This document shows positions 20,968 to 55,311 of a stretch of DNA of 64,000 nucleotides, piece after piece. The stretch comes from Desulfurivibrio sp. Lineage in GTDB: Bacteria; Desulfobacterota; Desulfobulbia; Desulfobulbales; SURF-16. Position 1 is the stretch's first letter, and every line of letters starts with the position of its first letter. The position numbers and the translations under genes were made by a program. The stretch lies in NCBI GenBank assembly GCA_003605035.1, contig QZKJ01000053.1:99507-163506 (forward strand), read 5' to 3'. The notes below the pieces were generated by a model. The model saw only the letters and a list, made by a program, of their open reading frames with translations, was not told where the DNA came from and ran no database searches.

Positions 20968-20983
20968 AGCAAGCTGTGTGCCA
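20968..20983 (-). promoter_or_regulatory. sigma-54 promoter of amtB-glnB-glnD
   Basis: The minus strand reads TGGCAC-ACAGC-TTGCT, a consensus -24/-12 with exact spacing. It lies ~55-65 nt upstream of the amtB ATG. Confidence 0.75.
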
Positions 20984-21046
20984 GAAATTCTTCCCCGTAT
21001 CTCATTGATTTTGTGGCGTAAAAAATGCTTAACATAGTGATGCAGC

Positions 21047-21076
21047 TAATTCTTATTACATATTTGTGATAAGAAT
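21047..21076. promoter_or_regulatory. inverted repeat upstream of the amtB sigma-54 promoter (candidate activator site)
   Basis: AATTCTTAT-N12-ATAAGAATT, centred ~80 bp upstream of the -24 element. Confidence 0.3.
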
Positions 21077-21117
21077 TTCGATTATTTACAAAAATGTATG
21101 ATTGTGGAGGGGGGGGG

Positions 21118-33709: not shown

Positions 33710-35629
33710 ATGGGTAAAACCGTTACGGAAAAAATACTGGCAGCTCACCTGGTGGAAGGTGAGATGATAAAGGGCAGGGAGATCGGCATCCGCATTGATC
33801 AGACCCTGACCCAGGATGCGACTGGGACCATGGCCTACCTGGAGTTTGAATCCATCGGCATCCCGCGGGTGCAGACCGAGTGTTCCGTCTGTTACGTTGA
33901 CCACAATCTGCTGCAGTCGGATTTCAAGAACGCCGATGACCATCGTTTTCTGCAGTCCATTGCCAGAAAATACGGCCTCTATTTTTCCCCGCCGGGCAAC
34001 GGCATTTCCCATCAGATCAATCTGGAGCGCTTCGGCAAACCGGGCAAGACCCTGCTCGGCTCGGACAGCCATACCCCCACCGGCGGCGGGCTCGGCATGC
34101 TGGCCATCGGCGCCGGCGGCCTCGATGTGGCCATGGCCATGGCCGGCAAGCCTTTTTATCTGGTCATGCCCAGAATTTACGGGGTGAAGCTGACCGGCAA
34201 ACTGTCTCCCTGGGTGTCGGCCCGCGACGTGCTGCTGGAATTGCTGCGCCGGCTGACCGTCAAGGGCGGGGTGGGCTATATTTTCGAATATTTCGGTCCG
34301 GGGGTCAAAGAGCTTTCCGCCACCGACCGGGCCTCGATCACCAATTTCGGGGCCGAGCTCGGGGCCACCACCTCGGTGTTTCCTTCGGACGAGAATACTC
34401 TGAAATTCCTCAGAAGCCAGGGCCGGGAAGACTGCTGGGTGGAGATCGTCGCCGATGCCGATGCCCAATATGACGAAATTACGGAAGTTGACCTGTCCAC
34501 CCTGGAGCCCATGATCGCCTGCCCCTCCTCGCCGGATAACGTGGTGAAGGTGAGCGAGGTGGCCGGCCGGCCGGTTGCCCAGGTGCTGGTCGGCTCCTGC
34601 TCCAACTCCTCCCTGCGGGATCTGCTGGTGGTGGCCAAAACCCTGGCAGGCAGGCAGGTGAGCAACGAGGTGAGTTTCGAGATCAACCCCGGCAGCCGCC
34701 AGGTGCTGGAGAATCTCACCGCCCTGGGCGAGATGCTGCCCCTCATTCACGCCGGCGCCAGGGTGCACCAGGCCGGCTGTCTCGGCTGTATCGGCATGGG
34801 CCAGGCCCCGGCCACCGGCACCATCTCTCTGCGCACCTTTCCGCGCAACTTTCCCGGCCGCAGCGGCACGGTGAGCGATCAGGTCTATCTCTGCAGCCCG
34901 GAGGTGGCCGTTGCCTCAGCCATTACCGGCAAAATCACCGATCCCCGCGACCTGGGGGATTATCCGGCCTTTACCCTGCCGGATAAATATCTGCCCGGCG
35001 ACTCCCGCATCGAGCCGCCGCTGGCCGACGGCAGCGGGGTGACGATCATCCGCGGCCCCAATATCGCCCCCTTCCCGAGCTTCGCCCCCATGCCGGAGAC
35101 CTGGCAGGGCACGGTGCTGCTCAAGGCCGGCGACAACATCACCACGGACCATATCATGCCGGCCGGGGCCCAGATCCTGCCCCTGCGCAGCAATATTCCG
35201 GCGATCAGCGAATTTGTGTTCCGGGCGCTCGACGAGCATTTCAGCCAGCATGCCAGGGAGGCGGGCAGCGGCATGATTGTCGGCGGCGAGAATTACGGAC
35301 AGGGTTCTTCCCGGGAACACGCGGCCCTGGCCCCCCGCTATCTCGGGGTGGAGGTGAAGCTGGTGAAAAGTTTTGCCCGCATCCATAAGGCCAATCTGAT
35401 CAACTTCGGCATCCTGCCCCTGACCTTTGCCCATCCCGCTGATTATGACCGGGTCAGGCAGGGCGCTAAAGTGGTCATCCCCGGCCTGCGCCAGGCCCTG
35501 GCCAGCGGAGCGCAGGCCATTACCGTGGAGATCGGCGGCCAGGCGGTGCAGGCGGTGCTCGATGTTTCCGAGCGGCACCGCCAGATCCTGCTGGCCGGCG
35601 GCCTGCTCAACTGGGCCAAGGGAAATTGA
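33710..35629 (+). CDS. aconitate hydratase (short ~640-aa form)
   Basis: 639-aa ORF with IRIDQTLTQDATG, GSDSHT, CSNSS and CLGCIG Fe-S ligand blocks, plus a swivel domain with GENYGQGSSREHAA. Confidence 0.9.
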   Translation: MGKTVTEKILAAHLVEGEMIKGREIGIRIDQTLTQDATGTMAYLEFESIGIPRVQTECSVCYVDHNLLQSDFKNADDHRFLQSIARKYGLYFSPPGNGISHQINLERFGKPGKTLLGSDSHTPTGGGLGMLAIGAGGLDVAMAMAGKPFYLVMPRIYGVKLTGKLSPWVSARDVLLELLRRLTVKGGVGYIFEYFGPGVKELSATDRASITNFGAELGATTSVFPSDENTLKFLRSQGREDCWVEIVADADAQYDEITEVDLSTLEPMIACPSSPDNVVKVSEVAGRPVAQVLVGSCSNSSLRDLLVVAKTLAGRQVSNEVSFEINPGSRQVLENLTALGEMLPLIHAGARVHQAGCLGCIGMGQAPATGTISLRTFPRNFPGRSGTVSDQVYLCSPEVAVASAITGKITDPRDLGDYPAFTLPDKYLPGDSRIEPPLADGSGVTIIRGPNIAPFPSFAPMPETWQGTVLLKAGDNITTDHIMPAGAQILPLRSNIPAISEFVFRALDEHFSQHAREAGSGMIVGGENYGQGSSREHAALAPRYLGVEVKLVKSFARIHKANLINFGILPLTFAHPADYDRVRQGAKVVIPGLRQALASGAQAITVEIGGQAVQAVLDVSERHRQILLAGGLLNWAKGN

Positions 35630-35807
35630 AAAAAAACTGGTAACTATTGAAGCGGCAACGCATCTGCTTTGTCATCGGGCCTGGCCGCATACCATATGCA
35701 GGGCGGCCAGGGCTTTCCCGGTGTCTGCGCTTACCGGCGCATCTGCGGCACTGCTCCAATATTGCTGCACCGGGCGAGCGAACGTTTTTCGTCCCAAGCC
35801 GGGTAAT

Positions 35808-35821
35808 TACAAAAAATTGTA
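35808..35821. promoter_or_regulatory. candidate enhancer (UAS) site 1
   Basis: TACAAAAAATTGTA (half-sites TACAA / TTGTA, 4-nt A spacer), ~270 bp upstream of the 36076 sigma-54 promoter. Confidence 0.5.
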
Positions 35822-35897
35822 CTTTGGCGCCGCACCTGCTGGGCAAGTAAGAGCATGATGCTGGTTTTTCTGCGGCAGCAACGGGGGACAGGGTCGG

Positions 35898-35911
35898 TAC
35901 AAAAAATTGGA
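35898..35911. promoter_or_regulatory. candidate enhancer (UAS) site 2
   Basis: TACAAAAAATTGGA, 90 bp after site 1. It shares the flanks GGGT..TAC and TTTGG with site 1. Confidence 0.45.
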
Positions 35912-35973
35912 TTTGGCTTAATGTTGTGATTTTGTTTAATAATTTCATTATACCCAGGGAAAAGGGCGGGGAG

Positions 35974-35987
35974 TATAAAAAATTGTA
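35974..35987. promoter_or_regulatory. candidate enhancer (UAS) site 3
   Basis: TATAAAAAATTGTA, 76 bp after site 2 and ~100 bp upstream of the -24 element. Confidence 0.45.
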
Positions 35988-36075
35988 TTTATTGAGGATG
36001 GATTCATTTTTGAGAAAAAATCCTATTCCCTTATGCCACAAGGGATTGAGAAGAAATTTTTTTTTCTGAGCTATT

Positions 36076-36091
36076 TGGCACGCCAGTTGCT
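36076..36091 (+). promoter_or_regulatory. sigma-54 promoter
   Basis: TGGCAC-GCCAG-TTGCT, a consensus -24/-12 with exact spacing. The predicted TSS is near 36102. Confidence 0.8.
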
Positions 36092-36101
36092 TTTACACCA
36101 A

Positions 36102-36178
36102 AGCAAGATAACAACTCTTATCTCCTTTCTCCAGAAAAAGGCTGGTCCTGTCCCCCCAGGATCGGCCTTTTTCGTTTT
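36102..36178 (+). ncRNA. candidate ~77-nt sigma-54-dependent small RNA, or a terminating leader of the DUF362 operon
   Basis: Runs from the predicted TSS to the terminator. It has a 6-bp hairpin AGATAA/TTATCT (36106-36123), an unpaired CCTTTCTCC (36124-36132, anti-SD-like), and then a GC-rich terminator hairpin plus U-run. Confidence 0.4.
36139..36178 (+). terminator. rho-independent terminator 50 nt upstream of the DUF362 ATG
   Basis: 12-bp stem AGGCTGGTCCTG / CAGGATCGGCCT (two G.U pairs) with a 6-nt loop, followed by TTTTTCGTTTT. An A-run precedes it. Confidence 0.7.
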
Positions 36179-36227
36179 GTGGCGCCAGGCATCTTCCCAT
36201 CCTCCCTGTTTTTTCCGCTGACAAGCC

Positions 36228-37163
36228 ATGGAAATTTCATCACAAGAAGTAGGCATCCTGCGCTGCCCCGCCTATGGCCGGCAGGCGCTTAAGGAGCAGG
36301 TGGCCATCATTGCCGCGGCCCTTGGTTTTCACCTGCCGGCCGGCAGCCAGGTACTGCTGAAACCGAACCTGGTGGCCGGGCGAGGCCACAACGGCCTGGC
36401 CTGCACCCACCCGGAGTTTGTCGCCGCGGTGGCCGAGTGGTGCCTGGACTGCGGGGCCAGGGTGGCCATCGGCGATTCCCCCGCCTTTGGCCGGGCGCCT
36501 GCCGTGATGCGGGCCTGCGGCTTTGCCGAAAGCCTCAGGGGGCTGCCGGTTGCGTTGATTCATTTCGGCACGGCCCGGCAGGTCAGGCTTGCCTGCGGCG
36601 AGCGCATCACGCTGGCCGCCGAGGCGCTGGACTGCGATGTGCTGATCAATCTCCCCAAGTGCAAGGCCCATTCCCAGACCTTCATTTCCCTTGCGGTGAA
36701 AAATTGTTTCGGCACGGTGAAAGGCCTGGGCAAGGCCCTGCTCCATCAGAAACTGGGAGAGGATGAGCAGGCTTTCTGCCGGCTGCTGGTGGATCTGCTG
36801 GCGGTGCTGCCGGCTGGGATCAATTTTATTGATGGGGTGCAGGCCATGCACCGGAAAGGCCCGATGCGCGGGGAGATGTTCCCCCTGGGGGTGATGGCTG
36901 GCTCGGTCAATCCCGTGGCCCTGGATACCGCCATGCTGCTCATGCTTGGTGTCGCCCCGGAGCAGAGCATGATCTGGCGGGAGACGGCGAGACAGAGGCT
37001 TGCCGGCGCCCGACCGGAGGAGCTTGTCTTCCCGTTGCTGCAGCCGCGGGATATCCCGGCCGATGGCTTTGTCCTGCCGTCGGAATTGCAACCGATCCCG
37101 TTTAAGCCCCTGCAGGTTATCAGCAGCCTGGTCAAGCGGGTGCGGCTGCTGTTGCATTCGTAA
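36228..37163 (+). CDS. DUF362 domain protein
   Basis: 311-aa ORF. VGILRCPAY...VLLKPNLV...INLPKCKAHSQT match my recollection of DUF362. There is no obvious Shine-Dalgarno sequence before the ATG. Confidence 0.7.
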   Translation: MEISSQEVGILRCPAYGRQALKEQVAIIAAALGFHLPAGSQVLLKPNLVAGRGHNGLACTHPEFVAAVAEWCLDCGARVAIGDSPAFGRAPAVMRACGFAESLRGLPVALIHFGTARQVRLACGERITLAAEALDCDVLINLPKCKAHSQTFISLAVKNCFGTVKGLGKALLHQKLGEDEQAFCRLLVDLLAVLPAGINFIDGVQAMHRKGPMRGEMFPLGVMAGSVNPVALDTAMLLMLGVAPEQSMIWRETARQRLAGARPEELVFPLLQPRDIPADGFVLPSELQPIPFKPLQVISSLVKRVRLLLHS

Positions 37164-38658: not shown

Positions 38659-39819
38659 CTAGAATACAGACACGTAGAAGAGATATTCCTGGTATCTGAA
38701 AATAACGCCATCAGTTGAAATCTCAGCCACTTTGAGATCCGGAGCAAGCATCTGCCCTTCCCGCAATATTTTGCCGTTAATGCTTGCAAAGCGCGCGGCC
38801 GGTTTATCTTTGTAAAAGAGGTGCGCACTGATGTGAATGTCCGGCAGTTGCTCTCTTATAGCCTCGGGAAGCTGATCAATGTGCATGGCTTTTTTCGTTG
38901 AACCGGCTTCCGGCTCAAGGGGGCTGGAATCTGCCGTTTCGGAAAGACCGGAGCGCTGCGGCTGATCCTGCTCCGGTTTTTCGTCATATTCTTCAGGAGG
39001 AGTGGGCGCTGCCGGGGCTACGGACTCGTCGGCAATGGCCACATCTTCGCGGGGAGCGCTCTGGTTCGCCACTTCTGACCCGCTCACCCATGCATCCTCT
39101 GCCTGCGCATCTTCCCGCGGTTGCGGGCCTGCTGCTGTTGCCGCTGTTTCTCCAGGAGACATGGGTGCAGCTGCGGCGGGATCCAGCCGGGAGGCAGCAT
39201 CATCTTCCGCCATACTGGCCACAGTGCTGTTATCCTCTGCGTCGGCAGGTTCGGATTGGCGGGGCTCGCGGCTCGCAGGCGAGAGCCCCGGCGTTGCTTG
39301 CGGAGCGCTCTTGTTCGCCACCTCCGGCACGCTCTCCCCGGTATCCTCTGCCTGTGCCTCTTCCCGCGGTTGCGGCCCGGCTGCTGTTTCTCCAGAAGAC
39401 ATGGGTGCAGCTGCGGCGGGATCCTGCCGGGAGGCAGTATCATCTTCCGCCATGCCTGCCACCGTGCCTTCCTCCTCTGCTGCGGCGGGTTCGGATTGGC
39501 GGGGCGCGCGGCTCGCAGGCGAGGGTTCCGGCGGTGCTTGCGGAGCGACCGCCTGCTGTCTCTGCTGAACCGTTTCCTGTGACGCCTGATCAGAGCTGGG
39601 GACAATGGTCTGCTTTTCCGTGGCCGGCTGATTGCGGAGCATCACAAAAAAGAGGATGAAAATCATATTCACCAGCACAATCGCCGCCAAGGGGATGGGC
39701 CACGAGGCTTTTTTCCTTTTTGGCGGGGCAAGTTCGAGCTGGACGGTGTTCAGGTCAGGAACGCGCGTCTGCTGCCGCTGCTTATCCGACTTCTTAAGGG
39801 CGTCGAGAATATAGGACAT
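38659..39819 (-). CDS. GspB/ExeB-like protein with an internal ~80-aa tandem duplication
   Basis: 386-aa ORF. It has the N-terminus MSYILDALKKSDKQRQ, one TM helix, a repetitive acidic/Pro linker, and a C-terminal domain (FASINGKILREGQMLAPDLKVAEISTDGVIFRYQ). It is coupled to the ExeA-like gene with a 1-nt gap. Confidence 0.6.
   Translation of the reverse strand: MSYILDALKKSDKQRQQTRVPDLNTVQLELAPPKRKKASWPIPLAAIVLVNMIFILFFVMLRNQPATEKQTIVPSSDQASQETVQQRQQAVAPQAPPEPSPASRAPRQSEPAAAEEEGTVAGMAEDDTASRQDPAAAAPMSSGETAAGPQPREEAQAEDTGESVPEVANKSAPQATPGLSPASREPRQSEPADAEDNSTVASMAEDDAASRLDPAAAAPMSPGETAATAAGPQPREDAQAEDAWVSGSEVANQSAPREDVAIADESVAPAAPTPPEEYDEKPEQDQPQRSGLSETADSSPLEPEAGSTKKAMHIDQLPEAIREQLPDIHISAHLFYKDKPAARFASINGKILREGQMLAPDLKVAEISTDGVIFRYQEYLFYVSVF
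39046..39522 (-). repeat. in-frame tandem duplication (~240-249 bp x2) inside the GspB-like gene
   Basis: ATGGGTGCAGCTGCGGCGGGATCC recurs at 39161 and 39401, and CTTCCCGCGG at 39111 and 39360 (a 9-nt indel separates the offsets). The encoded ~80-aa units are SPASR.PRQSEPA.AE...TVA.MAEDD.ASR.DPAAAAPMS.GETAA..GPQPRE.AQAED. Confidence 0.85.
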
Positions 39820-39820
39820 G

Positions 39821-41731
39821 TTAATTCTCCTCGCTCATGGTGATTAATCTGGGCACTTTGCTGTCATATGCCGAATTAAGATGAATGATTGTCAGTGGGC
39901 CGACGATACCGTCCGGGACAAGGTTTCTCTCAAACTGGAACTGCTTTACCTGACTGACCAGAACGTCATCATAGCGGACAGGTGTCTTGTCGCTGGCTGG
40001 CCGTTTCTGGATAAGGGCAAGTTTCTTATCCAGCCACTCCACCCTGGCGGCATGATTTTCCGGTTTGATGGCCGCGACATATTCTTCCGGTTTTTCCCAC
40101 AACAGGCAATATTCGCCTTTCCAGTGTGTTTTTAAATCTTCGATGGAGACACGTTTGTGTTCAGTCCCGAAGGCCAACTCGACGGACTGGCCGTCGAAAG
40201 AGAGGATGGTTGCGTAAAAGCGTTCACCATGATTGTCATACAAGGTTAATATCGCAGGGCTATTGATCTCAAGAAGACTGTTGAAGCTGCCTTCTTGATA
40301 GAGGTATCGTAAGTTCTGTGCTTCAGCCATGGCATTGGCGGAAGCGAGATCTCTGGGAACATGAGCAATCCCCCAACTGGCTAAAAGTGCCTGGTAGGCC
40401 ATCACCTTGTTGGCGGCAGGGGGCACACCCTCAGGCCTCGTCAGTGGGGAAAGTGCCAGTGGCGGTGTGTTGTTGGCCGTGGCATCGGTTTCTTCTGCCA
40501 GGGCGCCCTCATCAGGGGCAGCACTGTGCTGAGAAACCATCTTGATGTCCTCAGCCGGTGGCGCCTCGCTCAGCTGAGGAACCACCTTGATCTCCTCAGC
40601 CAGTGGCTCCTCGCTCAGCCGGGGAACCACCTTGATCTCCTCAGCCAGTGGCTCCTCGCTCAGCCGGGCAACCGCCTTGATCTCCTCAGTCTGTGTTGCC
40701 TCCTGCGCCTGCCGGGGAGATGGAAGCGATGCTGTTGCCCTCCGTGCGACGTCTTCCTCCGGTTGGGTAATTTCGACCAGTCGCGCCATCAGGCCCTGCA
40801 CAGATAAAGGGTCTGGTCTTTGCTTAAGATAGGCTGCCGCCAATACGGAGCCGCCCAAGAGAAGAATAAGTCCTGCTACGATCATCCCTGATTTTTTCCC
40901 TCTTTGCGCCGGCCGGTCAGCGGTTTCGCCAAAAACTTCGCGCGCCGCCTTTTTAATGGTCGCGATGTCCACCACGTCCTGATCCTGCACGTACGCTCCA
41001 AGCAGCGACCTGTCGCAAATGATATTGAGCAGGCGCGGGGTGCCGTTGGTTAACTTGAAAAGGGTTTTAATGGTTGATTCCGGGAAGATTTTTCTGCGGC
41101 CGCCGTTTATTGCCAGTCGGTGGTCAATATAAGAGCCTACTTCGCTTTCGGAAAGCGGGGTAAGGTGATACCTGGCGGTGATCCGTTGCGCGAGCTGGCG
41201 CAAACCCGGCTGCTCCAGCATCTTGATAAGTTCCGGCTGGCCCAGCAGGATGATCTGCAGAAGTTTTCGCTTATTGGTTTCCAGGTTGGTAAGCAGGCGG
41301 ATCTGCTCAAGCACATCGGTGCTGAGATTCTGGGCTTCATCAATAATGAGCACAGCCTTCCTGCCGTTTGCATGGGAATGGAGCAGGAAGCTGTTTAGGT
41401 GATCAACATAAAATTTAATACTGTTTTGTTCTTTTTGGTGGTGGATGCCGAATTCATCGCAGATTGTCGCCAGCAGTTCTTCAACCGTGAGTTTGGGATT
41501 GAAAATAAAGGCTATGTCCGTATTTTCAGGAACCTGTTCGAGCAGACAGCGGCAGATGGTTGTTTTTCCCGTGCCCACTTCACCGGTGAGCATGACAAAG
41601 CCGCCATCAACCCGCATGCCATAGAAAAGATGCGCCAGGGCCTCCTTATGGCGTTCGCTCATATAGAGGCTGTGCGGGTCCGGGGCAATGGAAAAAGGAG
41701 CTGCGGTAAAACCAAAATGTTCTTGATACAT
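39821..41731 (-). CDS. ExeA/GspA-like AAA ATPase with a C-terminal peptidoglycan-binding domain
   Basis: 636-aa ORF, MYQEHFGFTAAPFSIAPDP, with Walker A GEVGTGKT and Walker B LIIDEAQ. It also has one TM helix, 15-aa repeats and a PG_binding_1-like end (QVKQFQFERNLVPDGIVGPLT). Confidence 0.85.
   Translation of the reverse strand: MYQEHFGFTAAPFSIAPDPHSLYMSERHKEALAHLFYGMRVDGGFVMLTGEVGTGKTTICRCLLEQVPENTDIAFIFNPKLTVEELLATICDEFGIHHQKEQNSIKFYVDHLNSFLLHSHANGRKAVLIIDEAQNLSTDVLEQIRLLTNLETNKRKLLQIILLGQPELIKMLEQPGLRQLAQRITARYHLTPLSESEVGSYIDHRLAINGGRRKIFPESTIKTLFKLTNGTPRLLNIICDRSLLGAYVQDQDVVDIATIKKAAREVFGETADRPAQRGKKSGMIVAGLILLLGGSVLAAAYLKQRPDPLSVQGLMARLVEITQPEEDVARRATASLPSPRQAQEATQTEEIKAVARLSEEPLAEEIKVVPRLSEEPLAEEIKVVPQLSEAPPAEDIKMVSQHSAAPDEGALAEETDATANNTPPLALSPLTRPEGVPPAANKVMAYQALLASWGIAHVPRDLASANAMAEAQNLRYLYQEGSFNSLLEINSPAILTLYDNHGERFYATILSFDGQSVELAFGTEHKRVSIEDLKTHWKGEYCLLWEKPEEYVAAIKPENHAARVEWLDKKLALIQKRPASDKTPVRYDDVLVSQVKQFQFERNLVPDGIVGPLTIIHLNSAYDSKVPRLITMSEEN
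40535..40689 (-). repeat. in-frame 45-bp tandem repeat (~3.4 copies) inside the ExeA-like gene
   Basis: Units start at 40535, 40580, 40625 and 40670 (AACCACCTTGATCTCCTCAGCCAGTGGCTCCTCGCTCAGCCGGGG). They encode EEIKVVPRLSEEPLA repeats. Confidence 0.9.
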
Positions 41732-41959: not shown

Positions 41960-42544
41960 TTAACGCAGTTCTTCCAGACGCAATAAACAACGATTGAGGC
42001 TTGGCGCATTCAGCCTAGCCCTTGTAGGCTCCCAGTCACCCTGAATAAATCGGCTGATCTCCGACGTATAAAGGCGTCCGACCTGTGCGGTTGAACCGGG
42101 GTTGGGAACAAGCCCTGCCCTGACGGAAGGATATCGTGATTGACGGGCCAGATTCACCAAGGTCTGCTTTGGATCTGGCTGCAATTCTGGCCTTTGCGGA
42201 ATCCTTCCAATCGCCACACTAAGAAAACCGGCCAGTCCTTCTCGATCAGCCATTATCCAGCTCTCCAATTCCCTGACCACCACTCGGAAGAGCATTCCCG
42301 GATGCCTACGCGGCAGAAAACGACTCACGACCTGCGGCGGGCATGTCAGGCCGGTATCCATAAAATCCAATAGTGTCAGGACAGGAATCGAAGATGACAG
42401 CCCATTAAAGTCCTTAACGTGCTTCTTTATCCAGACACAACCTTTTTTACCAAAACAGGTCGTAATCTGGTGTCCGGTTGCTGATGCCAGACGGTGGGTC
42501 ATTGCTTCATCGGTGGGGCCTTCCACCAAAGCGTAAAGAATCAT
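41960..42544 (-). CDS. small Toprim-like / DUF4276-like protein, partner of the upstream ABC ATPase
   Basis: 194-aa ORF starting 9 nt after the ATPase stop. Contains an N-terminal ALVEGPTDE (Toprim-type Glu), LLDFMD acidic residues, and RELESWIMAD. The DUF4276 assignment is from memory and needs an HMM check. Confidence 0.55.
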   Translation of the reverse strand: MILYALVEGPTDEAMTHRLASATGHQITTCFGKKGCVWIKKHVKDFNGLSSSIPVLTLLDFMDTGLTCPPQVVSRFLPRRHPGMLFRVVVRELESWIMADREGLAGFLSVAIGRIPQRPELQPDPKQTLVNLARQSRYPSVRAGLVPNPGSTAQVGRLYTSEISRFIQGDWEPTRARLNAPSLNRCLLRLEELR

Positions 42545-42553
42545 GTGTAGCTC

Positions 42554-43696
42554 TTAGAACAGCGATAGTTGGTGTGCCTTGGGTGGGGCGGAACGGGGAA
42601 GTAGTACATCCGCCACGGAAAGACCCTGTTTGAGCAGTTTGGTTTCATTTTCGTCGGGTGGCTGAAAGCGTGTTCCATCTTCACCTGGCTCGAGCCGCAC
42701 CACTTCTTCTCCCCCAATTCCCTTATCCGTAAGCATTTCCTCCGAATGGGTGCTCATAATGATCTGACGCCGGGTCTTTCGCAGTTTCTGTAACCGCTCA
42801 AACATCTGCGGTAGATGCCTGACCACTTCACTGTGAAGTGAAAGTTCCGGTTCTTCCAGAAGGAGGGGGCCGTTTCCTTCAAATACCGTCCACAGCAGTC
42901 CGAACAAGCGCAACGTGCCGTCCGAAAGCTGGCTTTCATTCTGAAATGCTCCCTGAGCACGCCAGTGATCATAGCGGCCATTGAGATGCGGCACGCCCTG
43001 TTTGTCATCCATGACGACTGCAAGCTCTTGAAGATGTGGAACCGCGACTTTCAGGGCACTCGAAATCCTTTTCAACCTGGCATTTCTTGTTTTTTGGGAC
43101 GTGTTCCACAGGCGCAGAAGAAAATCACGGCCAAAGGGGTCCTCATGGACCTGCACAGGAGAGAACCCTTTTGGGTCGCGCACTACCTGAGGAATGATGT
43201 GTTGGTAGGAGATAGTCTTAAAAAAATCGGCGATCTCACGAAATTCCCTGTTGGCGTTCACCTGCTCAAGGTCTGTCTGGGTCAGCCGCACCGGATCATC
43301 TTTGTCCTCCTGCCTTGGACGACTCAGGAGGTCAGGCCCTTTTTTTTTCAGGTCTGAGACACTTTCTTTCTTGACAATCGGACGTTGTCTGTTGTCCTGA
43401 TTGAATACAATACAATACAGCCAGGCATCAGCACCGGAATCGTCGGCGAGGGTCACTGCCACGTCTATATCCGAATAGCGACGGGCCGAAAGACAGCGCA
43501 AGGCGGAAACACCGCCGCGCCTGATGACCGCCGCTTCCAGACCGTCATTGGCCAAGTCGCGTAGAAAACGGAAGGCATCCAACAGATTCGATTTACCCGA
43601 GGCGTTGGGACCGATCAGAAAAGTCCGCCCAGAAAGGGCGGTAGCGGCGTCGCCGAAGTTTTTCCAGTTTCTGAGCCTGATATTAGTAATATACAT
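42554..43696 (-). CDS. compact ABC/SMC-like (AAA_21-type) ATPase
   Basis: 380-aa ORF with Walker A GPNASGKS, a signature-like LSDGTLR, Walker B LLLEEPE, D-loop SLH and H-loop STHS. Confidence 0.85.
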   Translation of the reverse strand: MYITNIRLRNWKNFGDAATALSGRTFLIGPNASGKSNLLDAFRFLRDLANDGLEAAVIRRGGVSALRCLSARRYSDIDVAVTLADDSGADAWLYCIVFNQDNRQRPIVKKESVSDLKKKGPDLLSRPRQEDKDDPVRLTQTDLEQVNANREFREIADFFKTISYQHIIPQVVRDPKGFSPVQVHEDPFGRDFLLRLWNTSQKTRNARLKRISSALKVAVPHLQELAVVMDDKQGVPHLNGRYDHWRAQGAFQNESQLSDGTLRLFGLLWTVFEGNGPLLLEEPELSLHSEVVRHLPQMFERLQKLRKTRRQIIMSTHSEEMLTDKGIGGEEVVRLEPGEDGTRFQPPDENETKLLKQGLSVADVLLPRSAPPKAHQLSLF

Positions 43697-53925: not shown

Positions 53926-55311
53926 TTATTCCTGAATGTTTCTATTGACCTCGATCTGGTATTTTTTTAAGTATTTCCAAAGAGTTACTCTACTGATGCC
54001 CATAAGGCGGGCAGCTTCGGATTTATTGCCGCCGGCAGCCTTCAGGGCCTTGACCAGGCGTTGCCGTTCGTCTTCCGTTTTGCTCAACTGCGATTTGAGG
54101 ACCGGAAAATTCAACATTTTCAGTTGCGTGGCAAAATGAGGGGGGAGATGCTCAGGGAGAATTTCGTCGCCTGCGCAGAGGACAAAGGCGTAGTCCATGG
54201 CATTGATCAGTTCCCGCACGTTGCCAGGCCAGTTGTATTGAGAAATCAGTTCCAGGGCCTCTTTGCTTATCCTATTGATTTTCTTGCCTGTTTTGATGCT
54301 GTTGTTGCCGATGAAAAATTCAACCAGGGCCGGGATGTCATCTTTTCTTTCCCTGAGGGGAGGGAGAGTGATGGGGATGACCCCGATGCGGTAATAAAGG
54401 TCCTCCCTGAAGCGCCCTTCCTTGATAAGTTTCGGCAGATTCTTATTGGTGGCGGCAATAATGCGGATCCGCAGGGGAACGGCAGGGTGGTCGACTGCCC
54501 CGGGGATTTCATGCTCCTGGAGAACGCGAAGCAGTTTGAGCTGCAGAGCAGGGGGCATATCGCCGATTTCGTCCAGAAAAAGGTCGCCGCCGTTGGCCGC
54601 TTCCAGTCGGCTGACCGCCCCTGCAGCGGAGCCAGTAGAGGCTCCTTGTATCTGGCCGAACAGTTCTCTTTCCAGCAGCTCCTCGTTAAGGGCCGCACAG
54701 TTGACTTTGACAAAGGGGCCTTCCCGCCTGCCACCGAGCCGGTGCAGGGCGGCGGCGACAAGCTCTTTGCCGGTGCCGCTCTCTCCATAAATGATAACCG
54801 GCGCATGAGAATGGGCAGCGCTCCTGGTAAGGTCAAACATCCTGCGCATGACCTCGGAGCTGCCGATCAGTCCCTGAAAGCCGTCTTCATAAGTAATATG
54901 CCGCTTGAGGCGGTTGATAATCCTGTCTTTTTCCTCAAGGGAACTCAGGTCGGTCAGATTTTCAACAGCCGCCACCACCGTATCTGTTTCATCGGTCAAG
55001 GTTGTCGCGTTCTTCAAGACGGTGACCACCGTTCCATCCTTGCGGCGGAAGCTGCAGCGCAGATTTTTTTCCTCGCCATGTTGGAACAGGCTGCAGTCCC
55101 TGGGTCTTCCTCTTCTTTTTGCCCTGTCGCAGCTGTCACATTCCAGAATGTCACAGCTTTTGCCGATAAGTTCGTTTCTCTTGTAGCGTAACAGTTCTTC
55201 CAGGGCGTTATTGACATAAAGAATTTTGCCGGACGGGTTAACCAGCATCAGTCCATCGGTCATGGTTTCGATGATTTTGTGACCACTTTTGGCTAAGATT
55301 TGTTCCAGCAT
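53926..55311 (-). CDS. PAS-domain sigma-54-type enhancer-binding protein with a variant GAFTGA loop
   Basis: 461-aa ORF with a PAS region, AAA+ domain (GESGTGKE, DLFLDEIGDM) and a Fis-type HTH (EAARLMGISRVTLWKYLKK). The GAFTGA position reads GASTGS. Confidence 0.9.
   Translation of the reverse strand: MLEQILAKSGHKIIETMTDGLMLVNPSGKILYVNNALEELLRYKRNELIGKSCDILECDSCDRAKRRGRPRDCSLFQHGEEKNLRCSFRRKDGTVVTVLKNATTLTDETDTVVAAVENLTDLSSLEEKDRIINRLKRHITYEDGFQGLIGSSEVMRRMFDLTRSAAHSHAPVIIYGESGTGKELVAAALHRLGGRREGPFVKVNCAALNEELLERELFGQIQGASTGSAAGAVSRLEAANGGDLFLDEIGDMPPALQLKLLRVLQEHEIPGAVDHPAVPLRIRIIAATNKNLPKLIKEGRFREDLYYRIGVIPITLPPLRERKDDIPALVEFFIGNNSIKTGKKINRISKEALELISQYNWPGNVRELINAMDYAFVLCAGDEILPEHLPPHFATQLKMLNFPVLKSQLSKTEDERQRLVKALKAAGGNKSEAARLMGISRVTLWKYLKKYQIEVNRNIQE

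Follow-up and report, generated by a model that had tools for sequence, protein, structure and literature searches.

We found that the spacer between an aconitase gene and a gene for a DUF362 protein, in a 64-kb window of the Desulfurivibrio sp. contig QZKJ01000053.1 (the whole stretch of DNA analysed, 64,000 nucleotides, numbered from its first letter), is probably a free-standing gene for a trans-acting small RNA, the expression of which would depend on sigma-54 and an enhancer-binding protein (EBP). We favour this reading because the same RNA precedes unrelated genes at other loci. An earlier note on this DNA, made from the letters alone, had proposed a self-contained sigma-54 unit yielding a terminated RNA of ~77 nt, and that proposal is supported by a conserved block, by the recurrence of the unit, by covariation in its terminator, and by the fixed position of an upstream palindrome.

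Exact matches to the sigma-54 consensus (TGGCACG-N4-TTGCW) number two in the window against 0.20 expected; one of them lies in this spacer, and counting from its -12 GC places the predicted transcription start at ~36102. Upstream are three TACAA-AAAA-TTGTA-type palindromes, TACAAAAAATTGTA (35808-35821), TACAAAAAATTGGA (35898-35911), and TATAAAAAATTGTA (35974-35987), at spacings of 90 and 76 bp; a search tolerating two mismatches or fewer counted 4 such palindromes in the window against 0.09 expected. When 36102-36182 (81 nt) was folded, a 6-bp hairpin came first, then a CU-rich stretch left unpaired, then a short linker rich in A, and last a long terminator hairpin; none of 200 shuffled sequences equalled its energy of -31 kcal/mol (z = -5.1). 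The terminator scan counted 8 G-C pairs among the 17 of the stem, and the 30 nt 5' of the terminator are variable or unstructured. Given an A-tract 5' of the stem, the terminator looks bidirectional. All the elements that the earlier note had read here were borne out: the palindromes and their spacing, as well as the promoter, were present where it had placed them, the fold agreed with its 6-bp hairpin followed by an unpaired stretch, and the DUF362 ATG (36228) lies ~50 nt past the U-run with no Shine-Dalgarno (SD) sequence before it. Its terminator with a U-run was also confirmed, although the stem comprises 17 pairs and the 12 bp that it had described are the G+C-rich core of that stem.

A protein-guided scan of one genome per species returned ten DUF362 loci, and four of these, in metagenome-assembled genomes (MAGs; L001-L004) with 82-86% DUF362 protein identity, have the same spacer as the window. 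The sigma-54 promoter match is retained in all four, and differences within the RNA block are confined to three positions in the 5' arm of the terminator (Table 1). One edge of the conserved block lies 2 nt 3' of the start predicted from sigma-54 and the other is the U-run. Because the block exceeds the adjoining protein genes in conservation and its edges are the expected RNA ends, these comparisons support a real, selected feature. The conservation that the earlier note had asked of orthologous spacers was found for the RNA block, the seed, and the two palindromes nearer the promoter (UAS2 and UAS3), but not for the distal one (UAS1), which in relatives is degenerate (TTAAAAAAATTGTA; half-site only) and abuts the aconitase stop codon. 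In two further loci (L005 and L006; DUF362 50% identical), DUF362 lies within ~15-20 nt of the aconitase stop and the RNA unit is absent between them, so the unit is not obligatory for the aconitase-DUF362 pair.

To extend the comparison, we scanned metagenomes with the pattern TGGCACG-N4-TTGC-N15-45-CTCCTTTCTCC, which fixes the last 11 nt of the CU-rich core (36122-36132) and leaves both hairpins free to vary. The scan matched 62 contigs, all 62 of which retain the promoter by construction, as it is an element of the pattern; a terminator stands directly 3' of the motif in 60 of them, and the other two resemble chance matches, approximately the number estimated for chance. The same layout was thus seen in 60 metagenome contigs and four genomes, carried on environmental and genome contigs of sulfate-reducer-type bacteria, and the predicted RNA family is widespread in Desulfobulbales-type and other uncultured bacteria. 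Folding of 49 distinct RNA variants gave a terminator of 12-19 bp in every one and a mean unpaired probability of 0.88 for the 11-nt core, and the 5' hairpin was optional (24 of 49), with a register that varies by subgroup. Terminator loop and stem lengths vary among members, and the upstream CUCUUAU of the core is common to most of them. In a covariance-model alignment of 64 members, standard pairs fill 93.9% of terminator cells, 15 of the 17 terminator pairs show both-sided (compensatory) changes, and double-change cells number 124 against 27.9 in shuffles, with slid controls pairing at 39-62%; these pairing figures are somewhat inflated by the fitting of the alignment to the structure, and the per-sequence folds, free of that bias, agree with them. 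MAFFT with RNAalifold on the raw alignment misaligned the stems and gave a poor consensus, and was dropped in favour of the covariance-model alignment.

The covariance model found a single copy in the window (36102-36178, 84.8 bits), and one RNA copy was seen per locus. Weaker full-length matches lie 5' of DUF362 in the cultured Desulfogranum japonicum DSM 18378 (L007) and in two Desulfobulbaceae MAGs (L008 and L009; one named as Desulfobulbus propionicus, the other as Desulfobulbaceae), where inspection by eye showed a sigma-54-like promoter with ATGCA or GTGCA as the -12 element, the core CAUCUCUUCUCUCCUUUUCC, and a terminator. The diverged cores of these three homologues indicate that the exact-seed scan underestimates the family. 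A second, different CU-rich small RNA candidate was noted on two marine contigs (L057 6701-6784, minus strand; L071 431-501, plus strand), 6.5-8.7 kb from the first RNA, with a sigma-54-like promoter TGGCACGGTTTGTGAA, the stretch CUCUUCUUUUUUUUACUUCCUCUUCC, a terminator, and a different upstream palindrome, GGGTAAAAATTACCC; this candidate may be a sibling of the first RNA that answers to a separate activator.

The promoter-proximal palindrome (16 bp, consensus GTACAA-W4-TTGTAC) is the copy kept across most subgroups. It lies 100-104 bp 5' of TGGCAC in most members of the window-like, marine, and L023/L053 groups, frequently in the perfect 16-mer form GTACAAAAAATTGTAC, and in the window its centre is ~121 bp 5' of the predicted start; the remaining subgroups have variants with A/T-swapped spacers, for example GTTCAAAATTTTGTAC, and in the termite-gut subgroup GGTACAAATTATTGGAT. 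Additional palindromes begin ~178 and ~266-269 bp 5' of the promoter in the window's clade, and one other subgroup has a second palindrome ~280 bp 5' of it; the UAS2 position is kept in the window's clade, L027, and L046. Across ~500 kb of fetched loci, all matches to GTWYAAWWWWTTRWAC sit 5' of this RNA's promoters. The palindrome looks like the dimeric helix-turn-helix site of an EBP, and its presence only at these promoters suggests a dedicated activator. Between the proximal palindrome and the promoter is an inverted repeat, TCCCTT-N7-AAGGGA, possibly a site for a second protein; within the window's clade its arms are kept and its loop differs. It is overlapped by an IHF-like match with one mismatch (36039-36051, minus strand), and the search for IHF sites returned one-mismatch matches only. 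The T9 tract directly before the promoter may be a bending or IHF region.

Table 1. Features of the predicted small RNA locus, with nucleotide identity to the window in the four closest MAGs (L001-L004) where it was calculated. Positions are those of the window unless a locus is named.
Feature	Position	Strand	Basis or remark	Identity in L001-L004
Enhancer region	35806-35990			72%
UAS1, distal palindrome TTACAAAAAATTGTAC	35807-35822			
UAS2, middle palindrome GTACAAAAAATTGGAT	35897-35912		begins ~178 bp 5' of promoter	
UAS3, promoter-proximal palindrome GTATAAAAAATTGTAT	35973-35988		begins 102 bp 5' of TGGCAC	
UAS3 to promoter	35991-36075			82%
Inverted repeat TCCCTT-N7-AAGGGA	36025-36043		between UAS3 and promoter	
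T9 tract	36057-36065		directly 5' of promoter; A/T runs at same place in many members	
Sigma-54 promoter TGGCACGCCAGTTGCT	36076-36091	+	exact -24/-12 consensus match	92%
Promoter to start, 12 nt				71%
Predicted small RNA, ~77-79 nt	36102-36180	+	fold, conserved block, covariance-model match	
RNA block	36104-36180			96.8%
5' hairpin AGAUAA / UUAUCU, 6 bp	36106-36123	+	fold	
CU-rich core CUCUUAUCUCCUUUCUCC, 18 nt	36115-36132	+	predicted single-stranded	
Intrinsic terminator	36134-36179	+	17-bp stem-loop 36134-36173, then GUUUUG	
Terminator to ATG, 47 nt				70%
DUF362 gene	36228-37163	+	no Shine-Dalgarno; pyrimidine-rich 48-nt leader	83-88% (coding DNA)
Diverged homologue	L007 3402-3467 (roughly NZ_KE386995.1 138,630-138,700)		core CAUCUCUUCUCUCCUUUUCC	
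Diverged homologue	L008 3785-3847		core CAUCUCUUCUCUCCUUUUCC	
Diverged homologue	L009 3791-3856		core CAUCUCUUCUCUCCUUUUCC	

The genes around the RNA change from locus to locus. Upstream neighbours include aconitase, fliL, MCP, ABC-transporter, and rsmG genes, and downstream genes other than DUF362 include dusB, maf, and a fur/feoA-like gene. In one context a divergent MCP gene is paired with dusB ~250 nt 3' of the RNA, in another a divergent ABC-transporter gene with maf, and in a third rsmG lies 5' and the fur/feoA-like gene 3'; a co-oriented gene is downstream in every context found. The constancy of the RNA, promoter, and palindrome while their neighbours change points to an independent gene. 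DUF362 is the recurrent neighbour: across the scan and the genome set, 25 loci spread over several RNA subgroups have it directly 3' of the RNA, and it is also downstream of the diverged RNA in L008 and L009. The linked DUF362 proteins fall to 46-53% identity with the RNA core unchanged. The gap between terminator and ATG is usually ~45-50 nt, with 30-100 nt inserted in some DUF362-linked loci, and no promoter of its own is evident for DUF362 in the linked loci. All RNA-linked DUF362 genes in the 25 loci lack a Shine-Dalgarno sequence and have a pyrimidine-rich leader (36181-36227 in the window and its equivalents), in contrast to aconitase and fliL in the window, which have clear AGGAG or GGGAG sites. 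DUF362 is probably fed by terminator read-through, and its repeated linkage to the RNA suggests that read-through also matters in those lineages. An amidohydrolase gene follows DUF362 in this window only and other genes take its place in relatives; the DUF362-amidohydrolase operon of the earlier note is thus particular to the window. An iron-homeostasis role, raised by the aconitase, DUF362, and fur/feoA neighbours, was left as speculation, as the other contexts do not fit it.

We suggest that an EBP encoded elsewhere binds the GTACAA-W4-TTGTAC palindromes, with the key site 102 bp upstream, and activates sigma-54 RNA polymerase at TGGCACGCCAGTTGCT. Judging from sequence and conservation, transcription would start at ~36102 and mostly stop at the strong terminator, giving the ~77-nt RNA, which is predicted by folding to consist of an optional 5' hairpin, the exposed CU stretch CUCUUAUCUCCUUUCUCC, an A-rich linker, and the terminator with its U-tail. 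The CU core contains CUCCUUUCU, which is the sequence of the 16S rRNA 3' end (the anti-Shine-Dalgarno) in many bacteria. The core may therefore act as a seed for Shine-Dalgarno regions, in that the exposed stretch would mimic the 16S end, pair in trans with purine-rich ribosome-binding sites, and block their translation. A small fraction of transcripts would pass the terminator and become the mRNA of the SD-less DUF362 gene, which would then answer to the same signal wherever it lies downstream of the RNA. A bolder version, which we regard as a long shot, is that this sigma-54-triggered anti-Shine-Dalgarno mimic broadly damps SD-led translation on one signal while the SD-less DUF362 escapes; if true, it would be a one-promoter switch coupling global translational down-tuning to SD-independent protein expression.

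Several observations weigh against a trans-acting small RNA. None of 67 loci has an EBP gene within 5 kb of the RNA. As the earlier note had stated, no activator gene is adjacent in the window: its only EBP-like gene lies 18 kb away (53926-55311, minus strand) and encodes a PAS-AAA+-HTH protein that is a poor activator candidate because GASTGS replaces GAFTGA, so that sigma-54 activation may be absent. The invariance of the 11-nt seed among scan matches is partly by construction, though the conservation surrounding it and the weak covariance-model matches in L007-L009 are not. A target search with the seed, which had been proposed earlier, yielded no convincing start-codon site: RNAduplex on both strands of the 64-kb window returned G-rich intragenic sites, none outstanding at a start codon. 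So generic a seed would be expected to pair with any strong Shine-Dalgarno, which leaves specificity unexplained. Finally, the tight and repeated DUF362 linkage could mean that the main role is in cis.

This last point is the starting place for a cis-acting leader, in which the real product would be the mRNA of DUF362 (or another downstream gene), the terminator a conditional stop, and the short RNA a by-product, with read-through controlled by a protein or RNA binding the exposed CU-rich stretch. The linkage of DUF362 across several subgroups and in the diverged Desulfobulbus-type MAG versions, the short gap that holds neither an evident promoter nor a Shine-Dalgarno, and the unfailing presence of a co-oriented gene downstream would all fit such a leader. 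We nevertheless consider it unlikely, as the same RNA also precedes dusB (at ~250 nt), maf, and the fur-like gene, DUF362 is ~420 nt away in Desulfogranum japonicum, the 30-100 nt insertions before the ATG are tolerated, and aconitase and DUF362 adjoin without the unit in L005 and L006. The fold argues in the same direction: the terminator is intact in the minimum-free-energy and centroid structures of both the 81-nt and the 159-nt transcripts and dominates them, no competing antiterminator fold appeared in either, and the best-conserved part is an unstructured 18-mer rather than a pocket-forming fold. The earlier note had offered an attenuator or riboswitch-like leader as its alternative; with no antiterminator and no match to a known riboswitch or leader family, the small RNA fits better, and it is the DUF362 linkage that keeps a leader under consideration.

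The CU stretch might instead titrate a CU-preferring RNA-binding protein, such as ribosomal protein S1 or a cold-shock-type protein. The length (18 nt) and single-strandedness of the core and its identity in most members would suit such a decoy, as would the lack of a specific mRNA target in the window, but each RNA offers one binding stretch, in contrast to the many repeats of known sponges, the locus is linked to no candidate protein, and identity with the 16S anti-Shine-Dalgarno tail, on established knowledge, points to SD pairing; we find a decoy quite improbable. Least probable of all is that the element is not an expressed RNA, being instead a DNA-level element (a protein site or mobile-element remnant) or a small protein-coding gene. 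Open reading frames (ORFs) do cross the region (36033-36221, plus strand; 36071-36256, minus strand), and comparison with L005 and L006 makes the unit look like an insertion between aconitase and DUF362. Against this, stem positions covary as RNA pairs, a consensus sigma-54 promoter stands at a fixed distance in every member, and no mobile-element terminal repeats were found. The small-ORF version was rejected, as the plus-strand ORF begins 5' of the promoter and is interrupted in L003 (ATGGCATAA), and the variable loop and stem lengths of the terminator would break a reading frame.

The trans-acting small RNA that we favour has no counterpart in Rfam. Rfam 15 gave zero family matches in the whole window at gathering score, a score reached neither by Qrr (RF00378), GlmY/GlmZ, Pxr, or CrcZ nor by any other of its families; a permissive scan of 35600-36300 gave chance-level matches only (at most 18.7 bits), and in ten divergent loci the only matches were tRNAs. 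Searches of the literature, for the seed sequence as well as for the topic, turned up no account of this RNA. The predicted RNA is a good candidate for a new regulatory RNA family that nonetheless belongs to a known kind, the sigma-54-dependent small RNAs. It would work as GlmY and other such RNAs do, yet it shares no Rfam membership with them. The description of the element as Qrr-style holds as an analogy, but not as membership in Qrr, GlmY/Z, or any other Rfam family. Like the Vibrio Qrr RNAs, which are activated by LuxO and sigma-54, it is predicted to be a short terminated RNA from a sigma-54 promoter with an activator palindrome ~100-130 bp upstream, an exposed conserved seed, and an activator gene that need not adjoin, and the two may share the arrangement of a dedicated activator-RNA pair. 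The LuxO site, TTGCA-W3-TGCAA, is unlike the GTACAA-W4-TTGTAC palindrome; Qrr has four stem-loops where this RNA has one optional hairpin and a terminator; this RNA was seen in a single copy at each locus, a further difference from Qrr; and the host here belongs to a different phylum (Desulfobulbales-type Thermodesulfobacteriota). RsaE/RoxS and FsrA of Firmicutes are small RNAs with C/U-rich seeds that mask Shine-Dalgarno sequences, and, as in this RNA, their seed is exposed, rich in pyrimidines, and complementary to ribosome-binding sites, with a terminator hairpin after it. They have sigma-70-type promoters, repressors or two-component regulators, and several C-rich loops, whereas the RNA here offers one linear CU stretch of 18 nt, is preceded by a sigma-54 promoter, and has no Rfam match to them.

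A precedent in organization comes from the same phylum-level group. Four sigma-54-dependent noncoding RNAs (ncRNAs) of Desulfovibrio vulgaris are targets of the EBPs DVU0653, DVU0679, DVU1419, and DVU2359, each ncRNA being the main or only target of its EBP, with palindromic upstream sites that are sometimes present in three copies (PMC3333781, PMC4641369). The EBP-ncRNA idea is the same as here, but all four upstream motifs (TGTCCGCGATCGCGGACA, CGTGCGATATCGCACG, TGTGCA-N6-TGCACA, and TTACGAAATTTCGTAA; PMC4641369) differ from GTACAA-W4-TTGTAC, and it is by these motifs, not by RNA sequence, that the RNAs are set apart. The EBP gene also adjoins three of the four D. vulgaris RNAs, unlike any locus found here. 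The nearest published look-alike of the palindrome is the site of the ZraR-type EBP DVU3381, TGTAYA-N5-TRTACA, which serves zraP-type envelope-stress genes (PMC4641369 supplement). Both are A/T-spaced palindromes with GTAC-type half sites, although the half-site spacing is 1 bp shorter for DVU3381 (GTAC-N7-GWAC against GTAC-N8-GTAC) and its targets are genes rather than an RNA; we take the likeness as a possible lead to the activator family, not as an identification.

Elsewhere in the window, amtB and fliL each stand behind a sigma-54 promoter that is exact or near consensus, which indicates that sigma-54 is in use here. The second exact match (20968-20983, minus strand) is upstream of amtB-glnK-glnD, after which comes a gene for a type III glutamine synthetase; operons of the amtB-glnK-glnD type are classic sigma-54 operons. 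ACA-N4-TGT type sites (e.g., TCACAAATATGTAAT) at 21040-21100, 5' of this promoter, are similar to the motif published for DVU1949, a nitrogen regulator of Desulfovibrio. The fliL gene has the sigma-54-type promoter TGGCATAATACTCGCA 41 nt 5' of it (33428-33413, minus strand), and at the equivalent place in L005 and L006 the sigma-54 promoters match the consensus. The aconitase stop and the first palindrome are separated by ~175 bp of G+C-rich DNA (35630-35805) that L001-L004 lack and that looks like an insertion within an A-run. Further along the window, GspA/GspB-like genes (38659-41731) adjoin an AAA_21/AAA_15 ATPase gene (41960-43696, minus strand) that itself adjoins a weak DUF4276 match, the latter two resembling a gene pair of the defence type.

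Sulfate reducers and their relatives have unusually many sigma-54 activators, most of which, to our knowledge, are without assigned targets. Here a complete regulatory module of palindrome, promoter, RNA, and terminator can be read from sequence, and it is kept across lineages in which the neighbouring proteins are at ~50% identity. An upstream site that seems to be used nowhere else nearby is what would be expected of a dedicated pair such as LuxO-Qrr, and the diverged homologue in the cultured Desulfogranum japonicum DSM 18378 makes the prediction open to a laboratory check. If the activator and its signal were identified, the sigma-54 network of Desulfobulbales-type bacteria would gain a post-transcriptional branch, and there would be a function-linked handle on the uncharacterised DUF362 protein.

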